From NCBI GenBank assembly GCA_964351225.1, contig CAYGNG010000005.1, forward strand, positions 12,976 through 76,975: 64,000 nucleotides of DNA, in the 5' to 3' direction. The notes beneath the pieces are model-generated. The model was not told the DNA's origin. It searched no databases and was given only the letters and a program-made list of their open reading frames with translations. Every line of letters begins with the position of its first letter. The first letter of the stretch is position 1. The translations under genes were made by a program, and so were the position numbers. Below are positions 26,782 to 51,297 of the stretch, one piece after another. The stretch comes from an uncultured Gammaproteobacteria bacterium. Lineage in GTDB: Bacteria; Pseudomonadota; Gammaproteobacteria; CAYGNG01.

Positions 26782-27321
26782 ATGGCACAATACCTCGATT
26801 TTTCGCCCGATTTATTAGTTAAAGCCCAAAAAGTCAAACTATTGGTTTGTGACGTCGATGGGGTACTCACCAATGGCTTATTTTATTACGACCAAGCCGA
26901 AGAAAATAAATGTTTCCACGTCCACGACGGCTTAGGCATTCAATTAATCCAGCGAAGTGGTATCCCCGTCGCCATTGTTTCAGCAAAGACATCGCCCGCT
27001 GTTACACGGCGGATGGCTGAGCTTGACGTTGAATGGGTTTATCAAGGATGCTCACCGAAATTGCCTACCGTGGAGAAACTCATTGCCAATCTCAATCTCA
27101 CCTTTGAGCAAATTGCTTATATAGGTGATGATCTGGCCGATCTTGCTTTAATCCGCCGCGCTGGCCTTGGCGTTACCGTAGCGAATGCTCGCCCCTACCT
27201 CAAATCCCATGCCGATTGGATAAGTCCTTTAGCTGGCGGTAGTGGTGCAGTGCGAGAGCTCACCGATCTCATCATGACCGCACAAAACACCCTAGATAAA
27301 GCGATTGAGGCATTTTTATGA
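26782..27321 (+). CDS. kdsC: 3-deoxy-D-manno-octulosonate 8-phosphate phosphatase KdsC (HAD family)
   Basis: 179 aa; HAD motif LLVCDVDGVLT; operon position. Confidence 0.85.
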   Translation: MAQYLDFSPDLLVKAQKVKLLVCDVDGVLTNGLFYYDQAEENKCFHVHDGLGIQLIQRSGIPVAIVSAKTSPAVTRRMAELDVEWVYQGCSPKLPTVEKLIANLNLTFEQIAYIGDDLADLALIRRAGLGVTVANARPYLKSHADWISPLAGGSGAVRELTDLIMTAQNTLDKAIEAFL

Positions 27322-28241
27322 TGGTTACCATCAAACAATTTCTTGGTTATGGCTTGCTGATTACGATATTAATAGCAAGCTCCGTTATTTTGCTCTATTT
27401 AAGGCACACGGAGTCACTCGATGTACAGCCCGCTCCAGCTAACATACCCGATAGCTACGCTAAGCAAGTTACCCTTTCTCGATACGCACCCAATGGCAAA
27501 TTACACAGTGCATTAACCTCTCATTACATCCTTCATTATGATAAAGCACGAGTCACCAATCTATACCACCCCATTGTCTATTTTAAAAATCCTGATCACG
27601 AAGACTGGATCATTCGCTCAAACTACGCCCAATACAATGATAGCAATGACATCATTGAATTTTGGGAGGCGGCAAACATTCAACAACAAGCCAGCGCCGT
27701 TCAGCCGCCAACTGAAATCAACACCGCCTATCTGCGATATAACCCACTAACGAGTATAGCGAATACAGCAACAAAAGTTACTATCATCCAACCGAAAAAC
27801 ACCCCATCAGAATCATTGACGATCACGGCTGATTCGGCTATTTTTAAACATAATGAGGGGATCAGCACTTTCACCGATCAGGTTAAAATACAACAGGGCA
27901 GCACCGTCATTACGGGGAAAAAAATGATTGCCTATACCAACCACGCCAACAAATTAACTAAACTTATCATTGATGGTAATCCCGCCCGCTATCAAACAAC
28001 CCCTAACGTTTCGCAATCAAATGTATATGCCTCTGCACAGCAGATTTATTATTTCCCCAGTAAAAAAGAAGTGGATTTGATAGGCAATGCAACCGCCACA
28101 CAAAATCAAAAAATCATCACCGGGCCACACTTAAAATATTTTACCGAGCAAAAACTGGTAATTTCACCACCCAATGACATCGGGCAAACCACCATTATCT
28201 ACCCACCGGATCCCAGCGCACAAGGATCGCAACATGGGTGA
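27318..28241 (+). CDS. lptC: LptC-like N-terminal region (TM + OstA-fold) fused to an LptA-like C-terminal domain (apparent LptC-LptA fusion; no separate lptA)
   Basis: 307 aa; N-term TM helix, residues ~40-120 resemble LptC, residues ~165-307 show the LptA pattern (…[35 protein letters not shown]…IIDGNPARY…[21 protein letters not shown]); stop overlaps lptB start (ATGGGTGA). Confidence 0.6.
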
Positions 28242-31544: not shown

Positions 31545-31718
31545 GTTAGGACTGACGATTAACGATGCTGGGTGAGGCAAAAACGACCGCACCAGGATGT
31601 GCGCGCTCTGGGGTATCACGAAGCCTCAATGTCACGACAGGATGTCAGGCAATTAAACCCGTGCGGTTGCATACATGAGCGATTTAAGTGCGTTTTGCCT
31701 CGGTCCTATAAGTCTTAG

Positions 31719-31738
31719 GTGCTGTTGACAATTAGGAG
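31719..31738. repeat. Half-copy remnant of the MITE/REP-like element (TTAGGTGCTGTTGACAATT) just upstream of hpf RBS
   Basis: Matches left arm + core start of family consensus, then diverges into aggag RBS + ATG of hpf. Confidence 0.5.
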
Positions 31739-39383: not shown

Positions 39384-40001
39384 ATGTTGAATGTCATTTG
39401 GCTTGGAATGATCCTGATCGCTGTCGTTGTTGGCGCAATTCATGGCCGTACCACACTGGTTGTCGCTGCAGTCACTGATTCCGCCAAAATGGCGTTTGAG
39501 CTTGGTCTCAGCATGGCGGGGATCATGGCCTTATGGTTAGGCATTATGAAAATTGCTGAAGACGCGCACTTAATTCACCGGTTTGCCACCTTACTGAAAC
39601 CGCTGATGGCAAAACTTTTCCCTGATGTCCCTGCCGATCATCCCGCAATGGGTTCCATGGTACTCAATATGTCGGCCAACCTTCTCGGATTAACCAATGC
39701 CGCAACCCCTTTCGGCCTCAAAGCCATGCAAGATCTCAATACCTTAAACAAACAGCCCGGAACGGCGACCAATGCCATGTGCACCTTCCTGGCAATCAAT
39801 ACCTCAAGCATCCAATTGATCCCAACGACTGCGATTGCCTTGCTGGCAGCTGGTGGTGCAACGGATCCGAGTATTATCCTTGTTTCTGCTCTGTTAGCAA
39901 CCACTTGTTCGACCATTACCGGCATTAGTGCTGCAAAGATTTTAGAAAAATGCTCATGTTTCCGCCTTGAGGATAAGGAATCTGGCTCATGTCTACCGTA
40001 A
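39384..40001 (+). CDS. Nucleoside-recognition-domain membrane protein, SpmA-like
   Basis: 205 aa polytopic membrane protein resembling spore maturation protein A / Gate-domain family. Confidence 0.65.
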   Translation: MLNVIWLGMILIAVVVGAIHGRTTLVVAAVTDSAKMAFELGLSMAGIMALWLGIMKIAEDAHLIHRFATLLKPLMAKLFPDVPADHPAMGSMVLNMSANLLGLTNAATPFGLKAMQDLNTLNKQPGTATNAMCTFLAINTSSIQLIPTTAIALLAAGGATDPSIILVSALLATTCSTITGISAAKILEKCSCFRLEDKESGSCLP

Positions 40002-40531
40002 ATCATCTTGCGAGCATTTCTAATGGGTTATTCCTCAGTGTTGTCGCAGGAATACCCTTGTTTGCTGCTTTGAAACAAGTCAAAGTTTATGAGTCTTTTG
40101 TAGAAGGCGCCAAATCGGGCTTCACCCTCGTCGTCTCACTCATCCCCTATTTGGTTGCGATGATTGTAGCCATTGGCATGCTCCGTGCCTCCGGTGCATT
40201 TGAAGATCTATCCTATTTGCTTGCTCCCTTATTGAGCAAAATCGGTTTTCCGCCCGATCTATTACCACTTGCACTCATGCGACCTTTTTCTGGCTCAGGT
40301 GCCACCGGCGTGCTCGCTGAAATCATCCATCATCACGGTGCCAATTCCATGATTGCTTTAATGGCAGCAACCGTTATGGGCAGTACCGAAACCACATTTT
40401 ATGTGCTAGCCGTCTATTTTGGCTCGGTAAATATTCAAAAAACACGGCACGCTATTCTGGCGGGATTATTAGCTGATGCGGTTGGCGTATTTGCATCGGT
40501 CTGGATATGTTTATGGTTATTTAGACATTAG
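39989..40531 (+). CDS. Nucleoside-recognition-domain membrane protein, SpmB-like
   Basis: 180 aa polytopic; overlaps spmA-like gene by 13 bp, typical of spmAB pairs. Confidence 0.65.
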   Translation: MSTVNHLASISNGLFLSVVAGIPLFAALKQVKVYESFVEGAKSGFTLVVSLIPYLVAMIVAIGMLRASGAFEDLSYLLAPLLSKIGFPPDLLPLALMRPFSGSGATGVLAEIIHHHGANSMIALMAATVMGSTETTFYVLAVYFGSVNIQKTRHAILAGLLADAVGVFASVWICLWLFRH

Positions 40532-40579
40532 GGCCTGTTGACATTTGCAGCCGAAAAAGCAATTGTCAACAGACCCTAG
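40529..40579. repeat. Palindromic MITE/REP-like element, copy 3; terminal TAG is the spmB-like stop codon; lies between convergent spmB-like and tldD
   Basis: tagggcctgttgacatttgcagccgaaaaagcaattgtcaacagaccctag. Confidence 0.85.
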
Positions 40580-40591
40580 CTTCTGCTGACC

Positions 40592-42034
40592 TTACGATGT
40601 CCCACCAACGGTCAATTGATCAATCTTCAATGTGGGCTGACCAACGCCAACCGGCACGCTTTGACCATCCTTACCGCAGACACCGACCCCGGAGTCAAGC
40701 CGCATGTCATTCCCTATCATGGAAACATGTTTTAAAACTTCAGGACCATCGCCAATTAATGTTGCGCCCTTCACTGGGTATTTGATTTCGCCATTTTCGA
40801 TGTAATAAGCTTCATTGGCAGAAAAAACAAACTTCCCTGACGTGATGTCAACCTGCCCGCCACCAAAATCTACGGCAAACAACCCTTTTGAGACTGATTT
40901 AATAATCTCTTGCGGATCGTAAGCGCCGGCTAGCATATACGTGTTTGTCATCCGCGGTAAAGGAAGATGAGCATAAGATTCCCGTCGTCCGTTACCGGTC
41001 GGTTGCATCCCCATTAATTTTGCATTTAACTTATCTTGTATATAGTTTTTTAAGATCCCATCTTCAATCAATACGGTACATTGTGATGGCAATCCTTCAT
41101 CATCGATATTCAACGACCCTCGCCGCCCCACCAACGTGCCATCATCGACCACCGTCACGCCCGGTGCAGCTACCCGCTCACCCAAGCGACCACTAAACGC
41201 TGAAGTTCCTTTGCGGTTAAAGTCCCCTTCTAAACCATGACCAATCGCTTCATGCAGCAAAACACCCGGCCAGCCAGGGCCTAAAATCACCGGCATCGTC
41301 CCAGCTGGCGCAGGAAGCGCTTGCAAATTAAGCAACGCCTGTGCGACAGCTTTATCGGCATACTCAATGGCTTTATCTTCTTGCAAAAAATAATCATACA
41401 ACAAACGACCACCGCCACCGGCATTGCCGCGCTCTCTGCGACCATTTTCTTCAACCAGTACTGAAACATTCATGCGAACTAAAGGCCGAATATCTGCCGC
41501 GATTTCTCCGCGGCTTGTCATTACTAAAATATATTCATGAACACCGGACAAGCTGACAGTAACTTCTTGGATCCGTGCGTCTTTATTTCGAATATAGTCA
41601 TTAACTCGATGCAATAAGGCCACTTTGGTTGACACCAAGGTGGTTGCTAAAGGATCTTCAGAAATATATAGACTGGGTGTCACAGTAGGCGCACCCATAC
41701 TCACTTGCCCCTGCCCACCATGATGCGCAATGCTTCTTGCTGCTCGAGCCGCATTTTCCAGTGCTGGGTATAAAATATCGTTTGAATAGGCAAATCCCGT
41801 TTTTTCTCCAGATATCGCTCGTACCCCAACGCCACGTTCAATACTATAACTGGCCTCTTTAACAATGCTATCTTCTAACAGCCACGATTCATAACGACTC
41901 GATTGGAAATACAAATCCGCATCATCTATTTGGTGCCCCAAAACATGGTTTAGCGCAATCTCCAAATGTGATAAATCCATTCCACCTGGTTCTAACAATA
42001 CCGCACTTGCTTGCTTGATAATATCTGTTGTCAT
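40592..42034 (-). CDS. tldD: Metalloprotease TldD
   Basis: 480 aa; TldD family ([12 protein letters not shown] zinc-binding motif). Confidence 0.9.
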
Positions 42035-42050
42035 GTTTCTTAAGTCCTAC

Positions 42051-42863
42051 TCAAATTAACTTCGCATGCTCAATCGCTGGAAAATTTTTCCTAACACTCG
42101 CTTGAAACTCAAAATCCAAATCTGCCGTAATAACACCAGGCTCATTCTCTCTACGAGCCAAAATGTCACCCCACGGTGAAACCACCATACTATCACCGTA
42201 GGTCTCTCGACCACTCATGTGTTTACCCCATTGTGCTGCAGCAATCACATAGCTTAAGTTCTCTATTGCACGCGCCCTAAGCAAAACTTCCCAATGGGCA
42301 CGCCCGGTCACCGCGGTAAAAGCAGCGGGAATCGCCATGACATCTACCTGTAATCGATGCATCCGCCTAAACAATTCAGGAAATCTCAAATCATAACACA
42401 CAGCCAATCCGAGTCGCCCAAGCGGAGAATCCAATACCACTATCTCGGTACCAGGCTCCGTATGGAGACTTTCTCGATAAATGCCTCGTTGATCGGCCAC
42501 CGATACATCAAATAAATGGACCTTATCGTAACGAGCTTTACAAATCCCATTATCATCGAAAACCAAGGTGCTTGAACGTGATTTATTCGCATCGACCCCT
42601 TTAAGTGGAATCGTGCCACCCACCAACCACAGTTTGTATTTTTTTGCACATTCAGAAAGAAATGTCTGCAATCGCCCGCGACCAAACGTTTCTCGCAGTG
42701 ATAAACGTTGCTCCTCACTTGCACCCAAACAAGCAAAATCTTCCGGCAAAACCGCAAGCTGCACTTGCTCATGAGACAACACCGATAAATAGTGATCGAC
42801 CCGCTCAAGATTCGTTTGAGCATCCGTCGAACTGGTCAGTTGCACCGCCGCAACCTTTGTCAT
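42051..42863 (-). CDS. Carbon-nitrogen hydrolase (nitrilase superfamily) protein
   Basis: 270 aa; CN-hydrolase fold motifs (…LAVCYDLRFPE…); position between tldD and yhdP-like gene as in Pseudomonas. Confidence 0.8.
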   Translation of the reverse strand: MTKVAAVQLTSSTDAQTNLERVDHYLSVLSHEQVQLAVLPEDFACLGASEEQRLSLRETFGRGRLQTFLSECAKKYKLWLVGGTIPLKGVDANKSRSSTLVFDDNGICKARYDKVHLFDVSVADQRGIYRESLHTEPGTEIVVLDSPLGRLGLAVCYDLRFPELFRRMHRLQVDVMAIPAAFTAVTGRAHWEVLLRARAIENLSYVIAAAQWGKHMSGRETYGDSMVVSPWGDILARRENEPGVITADLDFEFQASVRKNFPAIEHAKLI

Positions 42864-45800
42864 TTTCTCACTCCCTGCCTCGAATATTTTTGTGATTGCA
42901 GCAAGGTGATCTTAGGATTATCCCATGAACCTTGCATCCGATAAATATTTGACGTCAACTGCCCCACGGCAGGCGACACCACTTGATCGGCAACCCACGT
43001 GATCACCCCAAGCACAGGACCACCAGCAATAGTCGCAACAACGGGCAAGCTCGAAGTCACATAGGGAATAATGTCTAATTGTACATCAAAATTGTGCTCC
43101 GCTAAACCTATCTTGCCGCGTAACCCAACAAAAGCGATTGGACCATCTAAATAAGCATTTTTAGTGACCGCATTACCATTTTGCAAATGAAAGGTTCCCT
43201 GCAAAATGTCAAAATCAAAACCTTCATTAGAAATTGCTTTATGATCCAGCGATAAACGGCGACGTAACGATCGCAAGCTTAGAAAGGTTAATAACTTCCC
43301 AGTTGCAATTTGCTGCTCGGCTTGTTCGCCTAAAGTTAACACTTCACCACCATGTAAAGTCAACGCCATCTGGCCATTCACCCGCTCAATGGCAAAATCA
43401 AATAAAGAACCACGCCAATCAATATCAAAATCCAATTCCCCTTTGCTTGCTTGTAACGCCGGCTCAACATTAAAATCCTGAAATACTTGTTGAACAGCAG
43501 CGGCCTTGAGCTCACCACTCAACTTGGTTAAGCCATTATTTCCATCACGCCAACTACCTCTAGCCCGCAACAACCAATTCGGCCTATTAAAGCTCAACTC
43601 ATGAATTTGAACAACCGACTTGTTTTTTTCTATCCTTATCGTTACTTTTCCTAATTGATACCGACCAAATTTGCAATCTTTGCAATAAAAATCAAACCGC
43701 TGGAGATCACCAGGCAAGAATTGCCTAGTGCCTTTAGACTGTGGCATATTCTTTAAATGCAATCGAGAAAAATTAAATACCACGCTTCCTTTAGCGCTCA
43801 AAGGATAGGCGATATCGCCTTTGATATGCCGGTTATTCACCGATAACAACCAAGCTGATTTCTGCTTTTGTGCTTTAACATTGATATCACGAAAAACCCT
43901 ATTCGCCCACAATAGTCTACCAATGTTGGTATTAACCCGTAGCCGCTCTACATAATTTGGCGACTGCGTTTTCATGTATTTTGCGTGCTTTTTATATAAA
44001 TGTATCCAAGGGGATAAATCTAATTTATCGAGGTGGCCATCAACTAGAATTTCTGAATTTTTAAGGACCTTGGTTTTGGTTTTTGCAAAGCTCAAATGGG
44101 CATTTGTTAATTGAATACCCTGCTGTTGTTTTTTAAGCTCAATCGCAGCGGCAAACCGATTGGCCATAACCAAGTTAATAACTTGTCGCTCACCTTGACT
44201 TAATAGCACATCCATCAAGAAACGTTGCTGAGCTTGTGGTTTTTTAGCAAACGGCTCTGGCAAATCTATTTGTATGCCGACTAAATCGCTGCGGATACGT
44301 AGGCTATCAGGCAGCTTACTCTTAATGCCTTGCAGCGACAATAAGACATTCAGATCGGTACTACCCGAGATGATTCCATAAGTTGGAGCGTGGAAAAAGT
44401 CCAAGACTTTCTCGATCGGCAAATGGCCCTGCAACAATACTTCAGTAAAATTTTCTCGCTTTTCCTTTGAACGGGAAGTGGCCCTCAAGGTGACTGGTTT
44501 TCCAAACAATTCCGCGTGCATCGGCGCACTCAGCAACCCATCTTGATTAAACATTAAATTTCCCATCACTTTATTGAGACTGAGGTGCCATAAGGGAACA
44601 ACGATTTCACTATTACTCAACCGTATTTCCCCTTTGGTCTGCACCGGCAGATCGGATCGGTCTAAAGGAATTGAAAGCGCCAAATGCAGATCCAATGGTC
44701 CTTTAAATTCCATATCGCGAAACGCGCTTCCCAAGGTATGCTGCAATGGGGTGTGCCTGATGAAATTCATCCCTTTTTCCATCGTCGAAAGCACATCACC
44801 GGATAACAGCAAAGAAGCACTGTCACCATGCTGCAAATTGGGGATCCGCGCCTTAATATCACTCAAATGCACATTCAATATGTCGGCTTTAGAATGTGCA
44901 AAATAAATAGCTTGATTCAAAAATTCGATGTCAGTTGAAATATTTTTAACCGAAGGCCATGCTTTGTTAAAGCGTAAATCTCCGTGTTCAATATGGGTGT
45001 TCGCTTCAAAAACCCCCATATTATCAACAAATGGGAAATGGGTGATTAAACCACGCAAATTAATTTGCAGATCAAAAGGATCGCTGTGTTTGAGCGAATG
45101 CGTGAGCCATTGAAAAAGCCTCGGCTTCATCACGCCAACCGGGTAATAATGCTTAATCTGCCCTAAGTCACCACAATGTATTTTCCCTAACACACTGATC
45201 TCTGTTTGAGTTAAATCACTTGGTAACTGCACAGCTCCAGATAACTGAGCATCGAGTTCAGAATTTACTAATTGTAGCTTATCAAACTGAACGGTCTTGG
45301 TATCACCATGCAACAATACGCTAACAAGCCCACGAGCATCATTAAAATACAGCGGTTGCGGCAATAATTTTCCTGCATCGAGCGTTATGTTACTACTATT
45401 AAGTTGTAGTTGTAGCCCATTTTGCGTCGCGATTACCGCACCAGTTAAATTATCAACCCCAGGGAATTTATCTTGTGGATCACTATGAAAATGCTCCGCA
45501 TCGGCTTGAATGATAAAATGACTGAACGGTTCGTGCCAATTAAAACCAACACGCAAATTTTGTAATTGACCACTATAATTATACACCGATCCCAAGTAAG
45601 GTCTCACATCGCTTAGTGACAAGCGATCTGCTATCATCTTTACTTGATAATCTTTAGCATTCTCATCAGATTGAATTTGCAGCCATGAAGTCGGCCAATT
45701 TTTTTTATCGATAACAATATGCAATTTATCAAACAATAAATCCCATTTCTGCTTGGTATATTTGCTCCAAGAAAGCGTTCCTGAAAACGCATTGCAACGA

Positions 45801-46720
45801 TAAGGATGCTTTTGATATTCAAATGTCGCTGCTTCTAAATCAAACTGACTTTGTATTTTTTGCCATTGCCCACCCTCCCATTTTGCCCAAATTTTTGCGC
45901 TTAATTTGCCGGCATCGATGGTGAGATCCGGTAAATTTTGCAGCCATTGCTTTAGGGCCTGTTGCCATCTGCAGTCGAAAAAGCAATTATCAACAGGCCC
46001 TAATACTAAATTCCTAAAATTCAAGTATAAGTCTATTTTAGTTTGCTCAGGATCTAAAGTTGTCCCTTGCATGATCATACCAAATGAAACGGGGGATTGA
46101 ATATCTCGTGCTAAATGAAAGCCACCTTTAACATAATGCTTTTGGGCTCCGCTGTTATTTATAATCACATTGAGATCGATCAGTGAATACACTTTTCCAG
46201 CCGCCGATTTAAACAAAAGATCGATATGTGACAATGCAATACTATTACGATTTAAAATCCACTTTAGTGGCGACTGATATGAATCATAAGATATGGTTGC
46301 TTGTAATGGCAGCGGATAACCATTAATAGTGAACGCGGTAGTGCCGATCTGCGCTATGGTCAACTTGATCCCGGAAAGCTCAATGCTTTGTGGATCCAGT
46401 GTGAGAGAAAATAAGCTGGCAAGCAAACTAAATTGTGCGTTTAATCGCTCTGCGCTTAAAATCGGTTGTTTTTTTTCATCATATAAAATGATATGGTGCA
46501 ATGTAATGCTGGGATGCCATCGATGCCAATGAAATTCCGAATGCGACAACGTAATGGTCTGATGGAGCGCTCGACTGACCCATCTTTCAACTTGAGCATT
46601 GTCTTGCAGCCACATCGGCACAATAACGCGAAGCACACTGGAGAGCACGGCCAGCAATACCACAGCCACCGCACACAACAACCCTATTTTTTGCCATAAC
46701 CATTTTGCCAATTTGACCAC
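42860..46720 (-). CDS. yhdP: YhdP/AsmA-like giant envelope protein (N-terminal TM anchor, ~1286 aa) carrying an in-frame MITE insertion
   Basis: Size, single N-terminal TM helix, and genomic position next to mreBCD and tldD match YhdP (AsmA2/DUF3971 family); no catalytic motifs expected. Confidence 0.7.
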   Translation of the reverse strand: MVKLAKWLWQKIGLLCAVAVVLLAVLSSVLRVIVPMWLQDNAQVERWVSRALHQTITLSHSEFHWHRWHPSITLHHIILYDEKKQPILSAERLNAQFSLLASLFSLTLDPQSIELSGIKLTIAQIGTTAFTINGYPLPLQATISYDSYQSPLKWILNRNSIALSHIDLLFKSAAGKVYSLIDLNVIINNSGAQKHYVKGGFHLARDIQSPVSFGMIMQGTTLDPEQTKIDLYLNFRNLVLGPVDNCFFDCRWQQALKQWLQNLPDLTIDAGKLSAKIWAKWEGGQWQKIQSQFDLEAATFEYQKHPYRCNAFSGTLSWSKYTKQKWDLLFDKLHIVIDKKNWPTSWLQIQSDENAKDYQVKMIADRLSLSDVRPYLGSVYNYSGQLQNLRVGFNWHEPFSHFIIQADAEHFHSDPQDKFPGVDNLTGAVIATQNGLQLQLNSSNITLDAGKLLPQPLYFNDARGLVSVLLHGDTKTVQFDKLQLVNSELDAQLSGAVQLPSDLTQTEISVLGKIHCGDLGQIKHYYPVGVMKPRLFQWLTHSLKHSDPFDLQINLRGLITHFPFVDNMGVFEANTHIEHGDLRFNKAWPSVKNISTDIEFLNQAIYFAHSKADILNVHLSDIKARIPNLQHGDSASLLLSGDVLSTMEKGMNFIRHTPLQHTLGSAFRDMEFKGPLDLHLALSIPLDRSDLPVQTKGEIRLSNSEIVVPLWHLSLNKVMGNLMFNQDGLLSAPMHAELFGKPVTLRATSRSKEKRENFTEVLLQGHLPIEKVLDFFHAPTYGIISGSTDLNVLLSLQGIKSKLPDSLRIRSDLVGIQIDLPEPFAKKPQAQQRFLMDVLLSQGERQVINLVMANRFAAAIELKKQQQGIQLTNAHLSFAKTKTKVLKNSEILVDGHLDKLDLSPWIHLYKKHAKYMKTQSPNYVERLRVNTNIGRLLWANRVFRDINVKAQKQKSAWLLSVNNRHIKGDIAYPLSAKGSVVFNFSRLHLKNMPQSKGTRQFLPGDLQRFDFYCKDCKFGRYQLGKVTIRIEKNKSVVQIHELSFNRPNWLLRARGSWRDGNNGLTKLSGELKAAAVQQVFQDFNVEPALQASKGELDFDIDWRGSLFDFAIERVNGQMALTLHGGEVLTLGEQAEQQIATGKLLTFLSLRSLRRRLSLDHKAISNEGFDFDILQGTFHLQNGNAVTKNAYLDGPIAFVGLRGKIGLAEHNFDVQLDIIPYVTSSLPVVATIAGGPVLGVITWVADQVVSPAVGQLTSNIYRMQGSWDNPKITLLQSQKYSRQGVRK
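45953..46003. repeat. Palindromic MITE/REP-like element, copy 4, inserted IN-FRAME inside the yhdP-like CDS (translated as [17 protein letters not shown])
   Basis: tagggcctgttgccatctgcagtcgaaaaagcaattatcaacaggccctaa, 51 bp = 17 codons; ORF continues uninterrupted on both sides. Confidence 0.85.
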
Positions 46721-46803
46721 GGCTATATCCCATTACCGCCAAATCGATTTGGTTTGGGAGTCAGATGATTGCGAGACGAAATAAAAAAACGGCTCAAACA
46801 TCT

Positions 46804-47322
46804 CTACTTCCTTTTGACCTGACTCGATGAGGCAAACATTTCTTCTGGGATCACGCGATGCTTCTCTTCTTGTAGTAAAATAATCGCAGGCCATACTAGC
46901 GCATTACTTAAAGGCATAAACCAATTAAAATGTGCATAACTTAATATCCCAATCATGCCTTGTACCCAGATCAATAACAGCAAGTAAATAAAGCTAAACA
47001 ATGCCACCATGAGACTCTGCTGCCACAAAGGATATAACCACATCCGTTGAGATACTTGAATCGTTAGATAGGCAATTATCGTTAAGGCCAGTGCGTGCTC
47101 TCCGAGTAAGGTTCCAGTTAACACATCCAATAAAATGCCACTGCCCCAAGCCACCCCTAAACTAAAACGCTCTGGATTTTGCATGATCCAATACATGAGT
47201 AGCAAAACCATCCAGGCCGGGCGAAACCAAACGGCCCACGTTGGCACCGGGATAATTTCTAGCATTAAAGAAAGAACTAATAACCAAGCACAATGGTTAA
47301 AGAATTTACGCCTCTTTGCCAC
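46804..47322 (-). CDS. mreD: Rod shape-determining protein MreD
   Basis: 172 aa polytopic membrane protein directly downstream of mreC with overlap. Confidence 0.75.
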   Translation of the reverse strand: MAKRRKFFNHCAWLLVLSLMLEIIPVPTWAVWFRPAWMVLLLMYWIMQNPERFSLGVAWGSGILLDVLTGTLLGEHALALTIIAYLTIQVSQRMWLYPLWQQSLMVALFSFIYLLLLIWVQGMIGILSYAHFNWFMPLSNALVWPAIILLQEEKHRVIPEEMFASSSQVKRK

Positions 47323-48235
47323 CAGTGCCTGCCTTTTTCTCGGGTTGTAATAAGGATTTCCATGCCGTCATTTTCATATCGAGTGTTTCCTGTTTGTGAT
47401 TGTGTAATAGATTAACGACTTCTCTCTGACGCGCACTGTCATGCCACGCTGGCCAAGCTAACAACAGTTGATGAACCCGATTCATATCGGCGCTTGGACG
47501 AACGGCTACCGTTAAAAACATTTCACCTGGACGCGCGGTAATTTTTTCAATGACACCAACCGGGTATCCCACAGGAAATTGCAAACCCAACCCGGAAGTC
47601 ACCAACACATCCTCTTCTTGGATCTCCGCCGTTTTCGGGACATGGATCATAGCTAACCGATTATTAGCACCCATGCCAACAACCACCCCCGTATACCCAT
47701 TGCGATTCACCCGCACCGGAACGGCACTACGCAGATCAGAGATCAATATCGCTCGACTGGTTAAAGGATCCACTTCAACGACTTGACCTAAGACGCCCTG
47801 AGCATCAAGCACAGGCTGTCCCAAATACAAACCTTGACGCCGCCCTTTGTTGATAATAATTTCATCCGCAAAAGGGCTGGCACCAACCGACAGCACCTGC
47901 CCAGCCAATACTTTATCGCCAGCTTTAGGTGCTGATTTCAGTAGTGCACGCAATTGCTTATTTTCCTGCTCCAAATTCAATAATTTTTGAACTCGCGCTT
48001 TCAACAATAATTGCTCGGTTTGCAACAATTGATTTTGCTTCAAAAGCGCATCGCGACTTGCCAAATCAGAAACAGCGCGTCGATAGAGGTGGAAAGGAAA
48101 ATTCACAATATATTGCAAAGGCACCACAAACAAAGTGAGCTCAGCGCGCAATGATTGCATGGAGTAATAACGCTGATCGCACACCATAAGCACAATCGAC
48201 AGTGTTGACAACAACAGCAGTCGCAAACTGAGCAT
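47306..48235 (-). CDS. mreC: Rod shape-determining protein MreC
   Basis: 309 aa; N-terminal TM, coiled-coil then beta-rich domain; mreBCD order. Confidence 0.85.
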   Translation of the reverse strand: MLSLRLLLLSTLSIVLMVCDQRYYSMQSLRAELTLFVVPLQYIVNFPFHLYRRAVSDLASRDALLKQNQLLQTEQLLLKARVQKLLNLEQENKQLRALLKSAPKAGDKVLAGQVLSVGASPFADEIIINKGRRQGLYLGQPVLDAQGVLGQVVEVDPLTSRAILISDLRSAVPVRVNRNGYTGVVVGMGANNRLAMIHVPKTAEIQEEDVLVTSGLGLQFPVGYPVGVIEKITARPGEMFLTVAVRPSADMNRVHQLLLAWPAWHDSARQREVVNLLHNHKQETLDMKMTAWKSLLQPEKKAGTGGKEA

Positions 48236-48290
48236 GTAGCCACGAGCGAAAATCCGTTTGATATTGCTATCCTCGTTGTTAGATTAACTG

Positions 48291-48339
48291 AGGTCCTGTT
48301 GACCATTGTTTTTTCGGCTGCAAATATCCGCAGGCCCTA
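48291..48339. repeat. Palindromic MITE/REP-like element, copy 5, in mreB-mreC intergenic region; terminal CTA (rc TAG) is the mreB stop codon
   Basis: gaggtcctgttgaccattgttttttcggctgcaaatatccgcaggccctac. Confidence 0.8.
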
Positions 48340-49374
48340 CTCGGTTGATAAAAAATCGCCGCCCATGATATCCATCAACTCCAAAGCTCGGCCGCCACCA
48401 CGAGCCACACAAGTTAAAGGATCTTCAGCGATAATCACTGGTAATCCGGTTTCTTCCATCAATAAGCGATCTAAATCTTTTAATAAGGCACCGCCGCCAG
48501 TTAACACCATCCCTCGCTCAGCAATATCCGCCGCTAATTCTGGTGGCGCTTGCTCTAATGCCGCACGCACAGCACCAATGATTCCAGATAAGGGCTCCTG
48601 TAATGCTTCGAGGATTTCATTACTGTTCAGCGTAAAACTTCTTGGAACGCCTTCGGCAAGATTACGTCCTCGCACTTCCATCTCCCGAATGCCGCTTCCA
48701 GGAAAAGCGGCGCCAATCTCTTGCTTCACACGCTCCGCGGTGGTTTCACCGATAAGGCTACCGTAATTACGTCGAACATAATTTACAATCGATTCATCAA
48801 ATCGATCGCCACCAATCCGAACAGACTGCGCATAAACAATACCGCTTAAGGAAATGATAGCTACTTCTGTGGTACCACCACCAATGTCCACAACCATTGA
48901 GCCACTGGCTTCTTCAACCGGCATTCCAGAGCCCATCGCCGCTGCCATCGGTTCTTCAATGAGGTAAACTTCTCGAGCACCAGCACCCATGGCTGATTCG
49001 CGAATGGCTCGACGCTCAACTTGAGTCGAACCGCATGGCACACAAACCAAAACGCGTGGGGAAGGTCGTAAAAACCGAGTCTCGTGAACTTTATGAATAA
49101 AATGCTGCAACATTTTCTCCGTCACATAGAAATCGGCAATCACACCATCTTTTAATGGCCGTGTGGCGGTAATATTGCCAGGTGTGCGACCCAACATTCT
49201 CTTCGCTTCTAAGCCAACTGCTGCAACCCGCCTTGCGCCGCCTTCGCTACGAATGGCTACTACAGACGGTTCGTTCAAAACAATACCTTTATCACGTACA
49301 TAAATAAGTGTATTAGCAGTACCCAGATCGATTGACAAATCGTTAGAAAAAACGCCTCTTAACTTTTTGAACAT
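48337..49374 (-). CDS. mreB: Rod shape-determining protein MreB
   Basis: 345 aa; [26 protein letters not shown]… near-identical to canonical MreB. Confidence 0.95.
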
Positions 49375-49481
49375 GCTGTATCCTCACATGACGGTCTAAA
49401 TCTTGGTAGATTAACAATGGAGAAGATTTTGGGCAAGAACCACAGTATAATATTCCCCATTTTGTAGCAGGAGAGATTGCC

Positions 49482-49781
49482 ATGAAGATCGACGCACAAC
49501 AAGTAAAAGCTATCGCAAATTTGGCTCGAATTGAAATTGATGAAAAAGATATTGAACAATATAGCGAAGACTTAACAAAAATCCTCACCCTGTTCACAAT
49601 ATTAAACCAACACAACATGGTCAACGTGGAGCCAATGTCTCATCCGCTCGATGTTTCACAACGGCTGCGCCAAGATGACGTCACTGAAAACATAACAGAG
49701 AATGACCAATTCGAACGCTTGCAAGCCCTTGCTCCACGCCTTGAAAATCATTTATACCTTGTTCCTAAAGTCATTGAGTAA
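49482..49781 (+). CDS. gatC: Glu-tRNA(Gln) amidotransferase subunit C GatC
   Basis: 99 aa; …[16 protein letters not shown]…LYLVPKVIE matches GatC family C-terminus. Confidence 0.85.
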
Positions 49782-49791
49782 GGCCCAAAAG

Positions 49792-51249
49792 ATGCATCAC
49801 CATTCGCTCGCACAACTCGCGCAACAGCTGATAAATAAAACCATTAGCAGTGTTGAACTCACCCACTACTTTTTAGCACGGATCCAAGCACTGGATAAGC
49901 ATCTCAACAGTTTCATTACGGTATGCGAAGACGGCGCACTTGCAGCGGCAAAACGAGCGGATAAACGCCGTGCCAAAGGAGAAAACACGCCACTACTCGG
50001 GCTCCCGCTCGCTCATAAAGATATTTTTTGCACGCAAGGAGTCACCACGACCTGTGGTTCGAAAATGCTCGAAAATTTTGTCTCCCCTTACGATGCCACC
50101 GTCGTAAAAAAGCTGCGCCAAGCCGGCATGATCACGCTGGGTAAAACCAACATGGATGAATTCGCCATGGGCTCCTCTAATGAAAACAGTTACTATGGCC
50201 CAGTCAAAAACCCGTGGGATACCACAATGGTTCCTGGCGGCTCGTCTGGCGGTTCAGCGGCAGCGGTCGCTGCCCGACTCGTGCCTTTTGCCACCGCAAC
50301 GGACACCGGCGGATCGATACGGCAACCGGCGGCTTTATGTGGGATCACGGGATTAAAACCAACCTATGGTCGCGTTTCACGCTACGGCATGATAGCTTTT
50401 GCATCGAGTTTAGATCAGGCTGGCCCCATGACCCTCAGTGCCGAAGATGCGGCCATGATTTTAACGGCAATGGCTGGATTTGACCCAAATGATCCAACCA
50501 GCATCGACCAACCCACTCCAAACTATCAAGCCACGCTTAATCAAGATCTGCGTGGTTTGAAAATCGGTTTGCCCAAAGAATATTTTACCACCGGTCTCGA
50601 TAAACCGATCGAACAGTCTATTCAAGAAGCAATCCACGTTTTAATCCGCTTAGGCGCCACTTGCCAGGAAATTTCTTTACCTCATACCAATCTTGCGATT
50701 CCAACTTATTACATCGTCGCTCCCGCTGAATGCTCATCCAATTTATCGCGTTTCGATGGCGTTCGTTTTGGCCATCGAACTCAACATCCTAAAAACATTC
50801 ATGATCTCTACTGCCAAACCCGTCGTGAAGGCTTTGGAAGAGAAGTGCAGCGTCGGATCATGATAGGGACTTATAGTCTATCCTCTGGGTTTTACGATGA
50901 CTATTATCTGAAAGCGCAGAAGGCCCGCAGATTAATTGCCAATGATTTTAAAAATGCCTTTACCGAAGTTGATGTTATATTAACCCCAACCGCACCAACC
51001 ACCGCTTTTAAAATTGGCACCAAACAGCACGATCCGATTCAAATGTATCTCTCCGATATTTTTACCAGTGCAACCAATTTGGCAGGCCTTCCCGGACTCT
51101 CACTCCCGATAGCACCCGTTAACGGTATGCCAGTCGGGATGCAATTGATCGGTAATTATTTTGCTGAAGGCCGACTATTAAATATCGCACATCGTTATCA
51201 AGGTGAAACCACTTGGCATACCGCCATCCCAGCATTATTTATTAAATAA
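49792..51249 (+). CDS. gatA: Glu-tRNA(Gln) amidotransferase subunit A GatA (start at MHHHSLAQL)
   Basis: Amidase signature [13 protein letters not shown]; gatCAB order. Confidence 0.9.
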
Positions 51250-51297
51250 GGCTTATTGCCATTTGCAGCCGAAAAAGCAATTGTCAACAGGCCCTAA
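51247..51297. repeat. Palindromic MITE/REP-like element, copy 6, between gatA and gatB; its terminal TAA is the gatA stop codon
   Basis: taaggcttattgccatttgcagccgaaaaagcaattgtcaacaggccctaa. Confidence 0.8.

Follow-up and report, generated by a model that had tools for sequence, protein, structure and literature searches.

An in-frame palindromic repeat within yhdP of an uncultured gammaproteobacterium, probably a transposed and tolerated passenger

A stretch of 64,000 nucleotides from an uncultured Gammaproteobacteria bacterium of the CAYGNG01 lineage (GenBank assembly GCA_964351225.1, contig CAYGNG010000005.1, positions 12,976 to 76,975 of the forward strand; hereafter the window) contains a family of palindromic elements of about 52 bp, one copy of which lies inside the gene for the envelope protein YhdP and is read as part of it. 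This arrangement is probably the result of transposition into yhdP of a dispersed hairpin repeat, similar to MITEs (transposable elements of the miniature inverted-repeat type) or repetitive extragenic palindromic sequences (REPs), which the protein tolerates as a harmless passenger and which is not an adaptation.

The gene and the element copy within it are as follows.

42860..46720, minus strand: yhdP, 1286 aa from a GTG start, intact on both sides of the insertion.
45952..46003, minus strand: element copy in yhdP, recovered by arm matches, repeat search, profile search, translation and hairpin folding.

YhdP is one of the AsmA-like bridge proteins, which are believed to transport phospholipids to the outer membrane. 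The identification of this gene as encoding a giant YhdP/AsmA-like envelope protein, made in an earlier sequence-only reading of the window, is confirmed by a full-length match to the Pfam YhdP family (PF13116, E 2.5e-220, residues 3-1271 against profile positions 6-1224 of 1224), and its neighbourhood, mreB-mreC-mreD-yhdP-(CN hydrolase)-tldD, has the usual order. The element copy in yhdP, the fourth along the window, is a palindrome of 52 bp (TTAGGGCCTGTTGCCATCTGCAGTCGAAAAAGCAATTATCAACAGGCCCTAA) with perfectly complementary arms of 13 bp each, which matches the profile of the element family with an E-value of 5e-18 and, as mRNA, folds into a hairpin of -28.6 kcal/mol (z = -5.4). It is identical to the family consensus at 48 of 52 positions, the four differences all being central and three of them non-synonymous, with the arms intact. 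The whole codons of the minus-strand open reading frame (ORF) that fall within it amount to 51 bp (46003..45953) or 17 codons, in agreement with the coordinates and peptide proposed in the sequence-only reading for a 51-bp in-frame copy at 45953-46003, the palindrome itself being 52 bp. The residue numbers proposed there, about 241-257, are one too high, and the peptide occupies residues 240-256 when the GTG start is counted as residue 1. As also proposed, the ORF is unbroken: its translation stays open through the copy over all 1286 aa without a stop.

On the opposite strand, an ORF of 64 aa (45906..46100, plus strand) crosses the element copy. Lying antisense to a gene with good support, it bears no mark of a gene itself, which agrees with its earlier description as a spurious by-product of the element, and its frame is open only through a TGC in the yhdP copy at a place where the consensus, in the same frame, has a TGA stop. 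The same TGA-to-TGC change corresponds, on the sense strand, to the Cys-to-Trp difference in the inserted peptide.

The sequence-only reading had proposed that an alignment of orthologues would reveal the 17 residues as a lineage-specific insertion, and would instead show conserved residues across them if the resemblance to the element were ancestral or coincidental. Alignment to a profile of 40 homologues, built with the query left out, placed about 15 insert-state residues of the query exactly at the element segment, and none of the 39 informative homologues in a MAFFT alignment has a residue under the approximately 13-15 columns that the segment occupies. A 17-aa deletion slid along YhdP raised the profile score by about 6 bits (from 789.8 to 795-798) only at positions from about -7 to about +12 residues relative to the element; elsewhere in the protein it cost 15-25 bits. 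When the length of the deletion was varied at the element site, the best score was obtained with 16 aa (803-805 bits), compared with 795-797 bits for 17 aa and 789.8 bits for intact YhdP, and after deletion of the insert the residues KQWL align with the conserved ..W/QWL.. motif of the family. Alignment, insert states and deletion scores thus agree in finding no conserved orthologue residues across the segment, and support its being a real insertion specific to this lineage.

The insertion is also present in a second assembly, as contig ERR3534985_37106 (L005) of the Logan assembly of run ERR3534985 is 100% identical to window positions 45920-51283, spanning the yhdP insertion, and both insertion junctions are reproduced by this second assembler. 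The 31-mers of the yhdP copy are unique because its centre differs from those of the other copies. Logan contigs of the same run end inside two other element copies, at 51283 (L005, window 45920-51283) and at 40550 (L012, window 40550-44085); as more than 31 bases are identical between these two copies, the element fragments short-read assemblies of this genome. The contig end at 45920 was considered as a presence/absence polymorphism and rejected, since the contigs of this sample are short and often broken and position 45920 is off the expected junction offset.

Mapping of the insert onto an AlphaFold model, also proposed in the sequence-only reading, places it in a low-confidence connector between beta-strands. 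The AlphaFold2 model of YhdP residues 1-600, computed from a 41-sequence alignment, has a mean predicted local distance difference test score (pLDDT) of 89.2 and a predicted template modelling score of 0.79, and consists of an N-terminal helix (2-38) followed by continuous beta-strands. The only ten-residue blocks with a mean pLDDT below 77 are 141-150 (56), 241-250 (58), 251-260 (60) and 261-270 (75), all others being at 77 or above, and most of the inserted residues fall within 241-270. With strand 228-240 on one side and, on the other, a short helix (251-259) leading into strand 267-282, the insert lengthens a connector and interrupts no strand, in keeping with a protein that tolerates it. 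In the PDB, a Foldseek search with this model found no match with an E-value of 0.001 or lower.

The element belongs to a family with the consensus TTAGGGCCTGTTGACA-TTTGCAGCCGAAAAAGCAAT-TGTCAACAGGCCCTAA, nearly the whole of which forms a hairpin, with inverted terminal repeats of 13-16 bp (TTAGGGCCTGTTGACA / TGTCAACAGGCCCTAA) as its arms. The 13-mer arm has ten matches in the window at no more than two mismatches, against 1.48 expected, a number reached in none of 100 shuffles. A repeat search of the window likewise found six copies of about 50 nt, and a profile built from these six with nhmmer recovered each of them with E-values from 5e-15 to 1.7e-19 and nothing further above noise except one arm-only remnant (31716-31733). 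Since centre and arms of the element are conserved alike, the copied unit is the whole of the 52 bp. All copies are singletons in the profile search of the window, five of the six are extragenic and one, that in yhdP, is intragenic, and the approximately 11 kb of flanking sequence in Logan contigs L010 and L011 contain no additional copy, giving six copies in about 75 kb for the window and its Logan extension. The remaining copies and the remnant are as follows.

13809..13860, minus strand: element copy that carries an indel of 1 nt and follows the RNase P RNA gene 21 nt downstream of its 3' end.
17045..17096, minus strand: element copy between convergent genes, its TAG at 17046-17048 being the stop of a DAK2/DegV fusion gene (15150..17048).
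31716..31733, strand not assigned: arm-only remnant TTAGGTGCTGTTGACAATTA downstream of rpoN, a weak match (E 0.39).
40528..40579, plus strand: element copy between convergent genes, its TAG at 40529-40531 being the stop of a YjgA-like ORF (39989..40531).
48289..48340, minus strand: copy of the element in degraded form, situated between mreB and mreC, the CTA at its end (48337-48339) being the mreB stop TAG on the minus strand.
51246..51297, plus strand: element copy between gatA and gatB, its TAA at 51247-51249 being the gatA stop.

The RNase P RNA gene (13882..14220, minus strand; Rfam RF00010, 339.9 bits) is the only gathering-level Rfam match in the window, and no covariance model matches the element. 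The stop codon of tldD lies 13 nt past the far end of the copy at 40528..40579. The remnant at 31716-31733 stands immediately upstream of a Shine-Dalgarno-like AGGAG and an ATG, and the element arm holds a perfect -35 hexamer, TTGACA. Three other identities of the repeat were considered and rejected: an intrinsic terminator, since no T-run follows any copy; a DNA-uptake sequence or pair of short motifs, since the centre is conserved along with the arms and the repeat is one unit; and an integron attC site, since the R/L box consensus is absent.

The positions of the extragenic copies follow a pattern, as four of the five supply the stop codon of a neighbouring gene (TAG or TAA) at element positions 2-4. 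The proteins of these neighbours are neither extended nor truncated, their domain models ending within a few residues of the C-termini, and GatA, for example, has 485 aa compared with 483-486 aa in its homologues. TA stands at both ends in four of the six copies, the copies at 48289 and 51246 each differing at one position of one end. When the empty spacers were rebuilt on the assumption of a 46-bp element body and a duplicated TA, three of them proved very short: one spacer between two convergent stop codons (TAAAGGTATCTA) contained three TA dinucleotides, two of them in stop codons; the spacer of the 40528 copy, also between two convergent stop codons (TAGCTTCTGCTGACCTTA), contained two, both in stop codons; and the gatA-gatB spacer (TAAGAAAATCGAGGAAAACAAAAATG) contained a single one, in a stop codon. 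The fourth rebuilt spacer contained six. Such placement at stop codons is exactly what a TA-targeting element under purifying selection would give. The consensus element is open in one of three frames in each orientation (frame 1), reading TTA GGG CCT ... GCC CTA, the other frames meeting TAG or TGA, and the yhdP copy uses this open frame. The yhdP sequence rebuilt in its pre-insertion state is GTA TTA AAG CAA TGG, encoding V-L-K-Q-W.

From these features a mechanism can be proposed in which the element would consist of a 46-bp body flanked by TA, reading TTAGGG...CCCTAA, and would be mobilised in trans by an unseen transposase, inserting at a TA dinucleotide and duplicating it. With duplication of TA an insertion would add 48 bp net, which is 16 codons, and would thereby always keep the downstream frame, and since the element body starts with G, TA followed by G would recreate a TAG stop. 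In yhdP the target would have been the TA of a TTA (Leu) codon, the sequence ...N-L-V-L-K-Q-W-L... having gained 16 aa between L and K-Q-W-L. The predicted empty site is GTATTAAAG for a gain of 48 bp with TA duplication and GTAAAG for a gain of 51 bp, and the former is more likely. The extra peptide would lengthen the connector between two beta-strands in the N-terminal lipid-groove region, and YhdP with the insert most likely still folds and works. Elsewhere the element would sit at the TA of stop codons because these are nearly the only harmless TA sites in tight spacers.

Several points weigh against this account. TA duplication, mobilisation in trans and retained YhdP function are steps that we infer, and since the nearest relatives in the databases searched are only 24% (YhdP) and 70% (GatA) identical and provide no empty site, TA duplication and a net gain of 48 rather than 51 bp are reconstructed from the filled site. 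The deletion-length test has a second, near-equal peak at 12-13 aa, and the outer T and A of TTAGGG/CCCTAA may belong to the inverted repeat and not reflect a target preference. Among the larger window ORFs covered by the scans there was no transposase with matching ends, and at 46-52 bp the element is far shorter than typical bacterial MITEs and nearer to REPs in size. The restriction of changes to the centre of the yhdP copy, with its arms intact, cannot be interpreted with six copies.

The main mechanistic rival is a REP-type origin, in which a REP-associated tyrosine transposase (RAYT, IS200/IS605-like) would have spread the element with no duplication of the target, adding a net 51-52 bp, and the in-frame yhdP copy would be one survivor among many frame-breaking insertions. 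We regard this as a possible explanation, clearly less likely than transposition of a TA-duplicating repeat. The length of 52 bp and the near-complete hairpin fit REPs better than MITEs, five of the six copies are extragenic and adjoin gene 3' ends, no DDE transposase is present among the scanned ORFs, and the element ends TTAG/GTAG resemble the GTAG head of REPs. REPs are extragenic by definition and often clustered or arranged in doublets, however, and the copies described here are all singletons, with no clusters or inverted doublets. Against a REP-type origin also stand the TA at both ends, the stop-codon TA in four of five copies and the TA-poor rebuilt spacers, which fit TA targeting, as well as the preference of the homologue profile for an excess of 16 aa over one of 17 aa and the lack of a Y1 transposase among the scanned ORFs.

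A more far-reaching version of the TA-targeting account is speculative and somewhat less likely than the REP-type origin. It holds that the element is an unusually small (46 bp plus TA), autonomous-looking hairpin transposon that is nearly harmless by design, being frame-neutral, TAG-regenerating and equipped with an open frame in each orientation. Such an element could colonise the stop and NTA codons of essential genes in the compact genome of an orphan, host-associated gammaproteobacterium and would be a regular source of new protein loops, as a gammaproteobacterial counterpart, with a targeting rule, of the Rickettsia palindromic elements (RPEs).

Disruption of YhdP by the insertion is unlikely. 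According to this explanation the gene is a young pseudogene whose frame has stayed open only by virtue of an insertion length divisible by three, with TamB/YdbH-type paralogues covering its function. AsmA-like proteins are partly redundant in Escherichia coli, the insertion adds a Cys-rich, aromatic peptide of 16-17 aa to a groove-forming region, and AlphaFold2 confidence is low at the insert. The copy is not brand new, however, having four substitutions relative to the consensus, and yet the frame of 1286 aa contains no stop or frameshift and covers the full Pfam profile; in addition, the insert lies between secondary-structure elements and not within a strand.

Slightly less likely again is co-option of the element, either as an mRNA hairpin modulating yhdP translation or processing by RNase III/E, or as a new loop (CFFDC, with a possible disulphide) altering YhdP function. 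This explanation draws on the hairpin of -28.6 kcal/mol, whose arms are perfect despite four central changes, and on the Correia and ERIC (enterobacterial repetitive intergenic consensus) hairpins, which are known RNase targets (PMC2229807). The distribution of changes between arms and centre (0/26 and 4/26) is not significant, though, and the other copies share the hairpin without a common regulatory context, none of them being an intrinsic terminator, as no T-run lies behind any copy; the single carrier genome, moreover, allows no comparison. Finally, an ancestral or coincidental similarity, or an assembly artefact, is very improbable given the family-profile match (E 5e-18), the absence of the segment from all aligned homologues and the second assembly that is identical through both junctions, even though only one genome is concerned and both assemblies may stem from the same reads.

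Transposition of a tolerated hairpin repeat therefore remains the preferred explanation, and makes the yhdP insertion a clear case, from outside Rickettsia, in which a selfish palindromic repeat has given a conserved envelope protein an additional peptide segment. It suggests a testable rule for tolerance, combining a TA target, a net gain of 48 bp and a single open frame, and the stop-codon pattern suggests how a TA-targeting element can persist in a genome with very short spacers. The natural 16-aa loop marks a position in the N-terminal groove region of YhdP that probably accepts extra sequence and could serve for tagging. The modest interest of the case lies in the very small size of the element, its frame-neutral 48-bp design, its placement at stop codons and the protein it has entered, and current understanding is not overturned by it.

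The source organism belongs to an orphan gammaproteobacterial lineage, as indicated by the identities to its nearest relatives, which are 21-24% for YhdP in a search among 5.8 billion proteins and about 70% for GatA (Ca. Berkiella cookevillensis, Thiodiazotropha, Methylophaga and metagenome-assembled genomes). Among other genes of the window, the ORF at 27318-28241 (plus strand, 307 aa) contains an LptC domain (15-161) and an LptA/OstA-like domain (168-278) and appears to be an LptC-LptA fusion, and the lptB-like ORF that comes next overlaps its end. Three large minus-strand ORFs, at 52833-56450 (1205 aa), 56551-59559 (1002 aa) and 18099-20285 (728 aa), have no NCBIfam match, and that of 728 aa, the one of the three that was scanned against Pfam, has no match there either. 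The ORF of 1002 aa contains a TCTTCC-type tandem repeat (58913-59025) encoding a Glu/Lys-rich stretch, and just outside the window (L011, 8522-10942) is a gene for a protein of 806 aa with faint ankyrin matches. Taken together, these features point to an effector-rich lifestyle in association with a host. Within an ORF of 301 aa (17103..18008, minus strand) without a Pfam match, a unit of 21 bp (17349-17453) is repeated four to five times in tandem.

Searches beyond the window gave no further members of the family. The element core YATYTGCAGYCGAAARARYAATK, which matches all six window copies, had four matches in the GTDB collection of 185,579 species representatives (the source genome not included and the inclusion of Coxiella burnetii unchecked) and four in JGI metagenomes, in both cases none with flanking arms and thus attributable to chance, and blastn of the consensus against plasmids and phages returned nothing meaningful. 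A peptide survey with a concatenated profile of 51 columns gave 66 candidates, none with an E-value of 10 or lower, and missed YhdP itself, so that it had no power.

Among small palindromic repeats, RPEs (Ogata et al. 2000, Science 290:347; summarised in PMC10969869 and PMC2229807) were the first reported to insert in frame into conserved genes, and the sequence-only reading had taken the yhdP insertion as showing their hallmark behaviour. The behaviour is indeed shared, as the element is a dispersed palindrome with a readable open frame, inserted in frame in a conserved housekeeping gene with its peptide at a probably surface-exposed or loop position and its other copies intergenic. Membership does not follow, since the element measures 52 bp compared with approximately 100-150 bp for RPEs, its host is a gammaproteobacterium and not Rickettsia, and one of six visible copies is intragenic, compared with nearly half in some RPE families. 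This separation is made on length and host, and kinship in sequence is not expected.

Later reports added the 107-bp form of Correia, ERIC/IRU, YPAL and the QMITEs of Coxiella to the elements that insert in this way (PMC2229807, PMC5896051, PMC10969869). The Coxiella burnetii elements QMITE1 and QMITE2, together with a small REP-like form of QMITE2 (Wachter et al. 2018, PMC5896051), resemble the present element in having a gammaproteobacterial host of a host-associated lineage, in forming hairpins and in overlapping gene 3' ends by a few bases. They are much longer, at approximately 190-400 bp, and the QMITE in enhC extends its protein in frame at the C-terminus, whereas the element described here is internal to the protein.

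Bacterial MITEs typically have TA termini and duplicate a TA target (PMC5896051, PMC2229807), and those that do so include Correia/NEMIS of Neisseria, RUP (IS630-Spn1), ERIC/IRU and YPAL (Delihas 2008, PMC2229807). The present element shares with these TA-inserting MITEs inverted terminal repeats ending in 5'-TA-3', but is less than half the length of Correia, RUP, ERIC and YPAL, has no known parent insertion sequence and has a TA duplication that we infer. With the REP/REPIN-RAYT systems of Enterobacteria and Pseudomonas it shares the size class of 20-60 bp and the presence of imperfect palindromes just downstream of stop codons, also between co-transcribed genes, from which it differs in its singleton copies, the one copy inside a gene and the lack of a RAYT gene among the scanned ORFs of the window. 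The element thus behaves like the RPE, Correia, ERIC and Coxiella QMITE insertions and is not a member of any of these families, and the kind of event to which the yhdP insertion belongs is already documented in bacteria, including the gammaproteobacterium Coxiella (PMC5896051, PMC2229807, PMC10969869).

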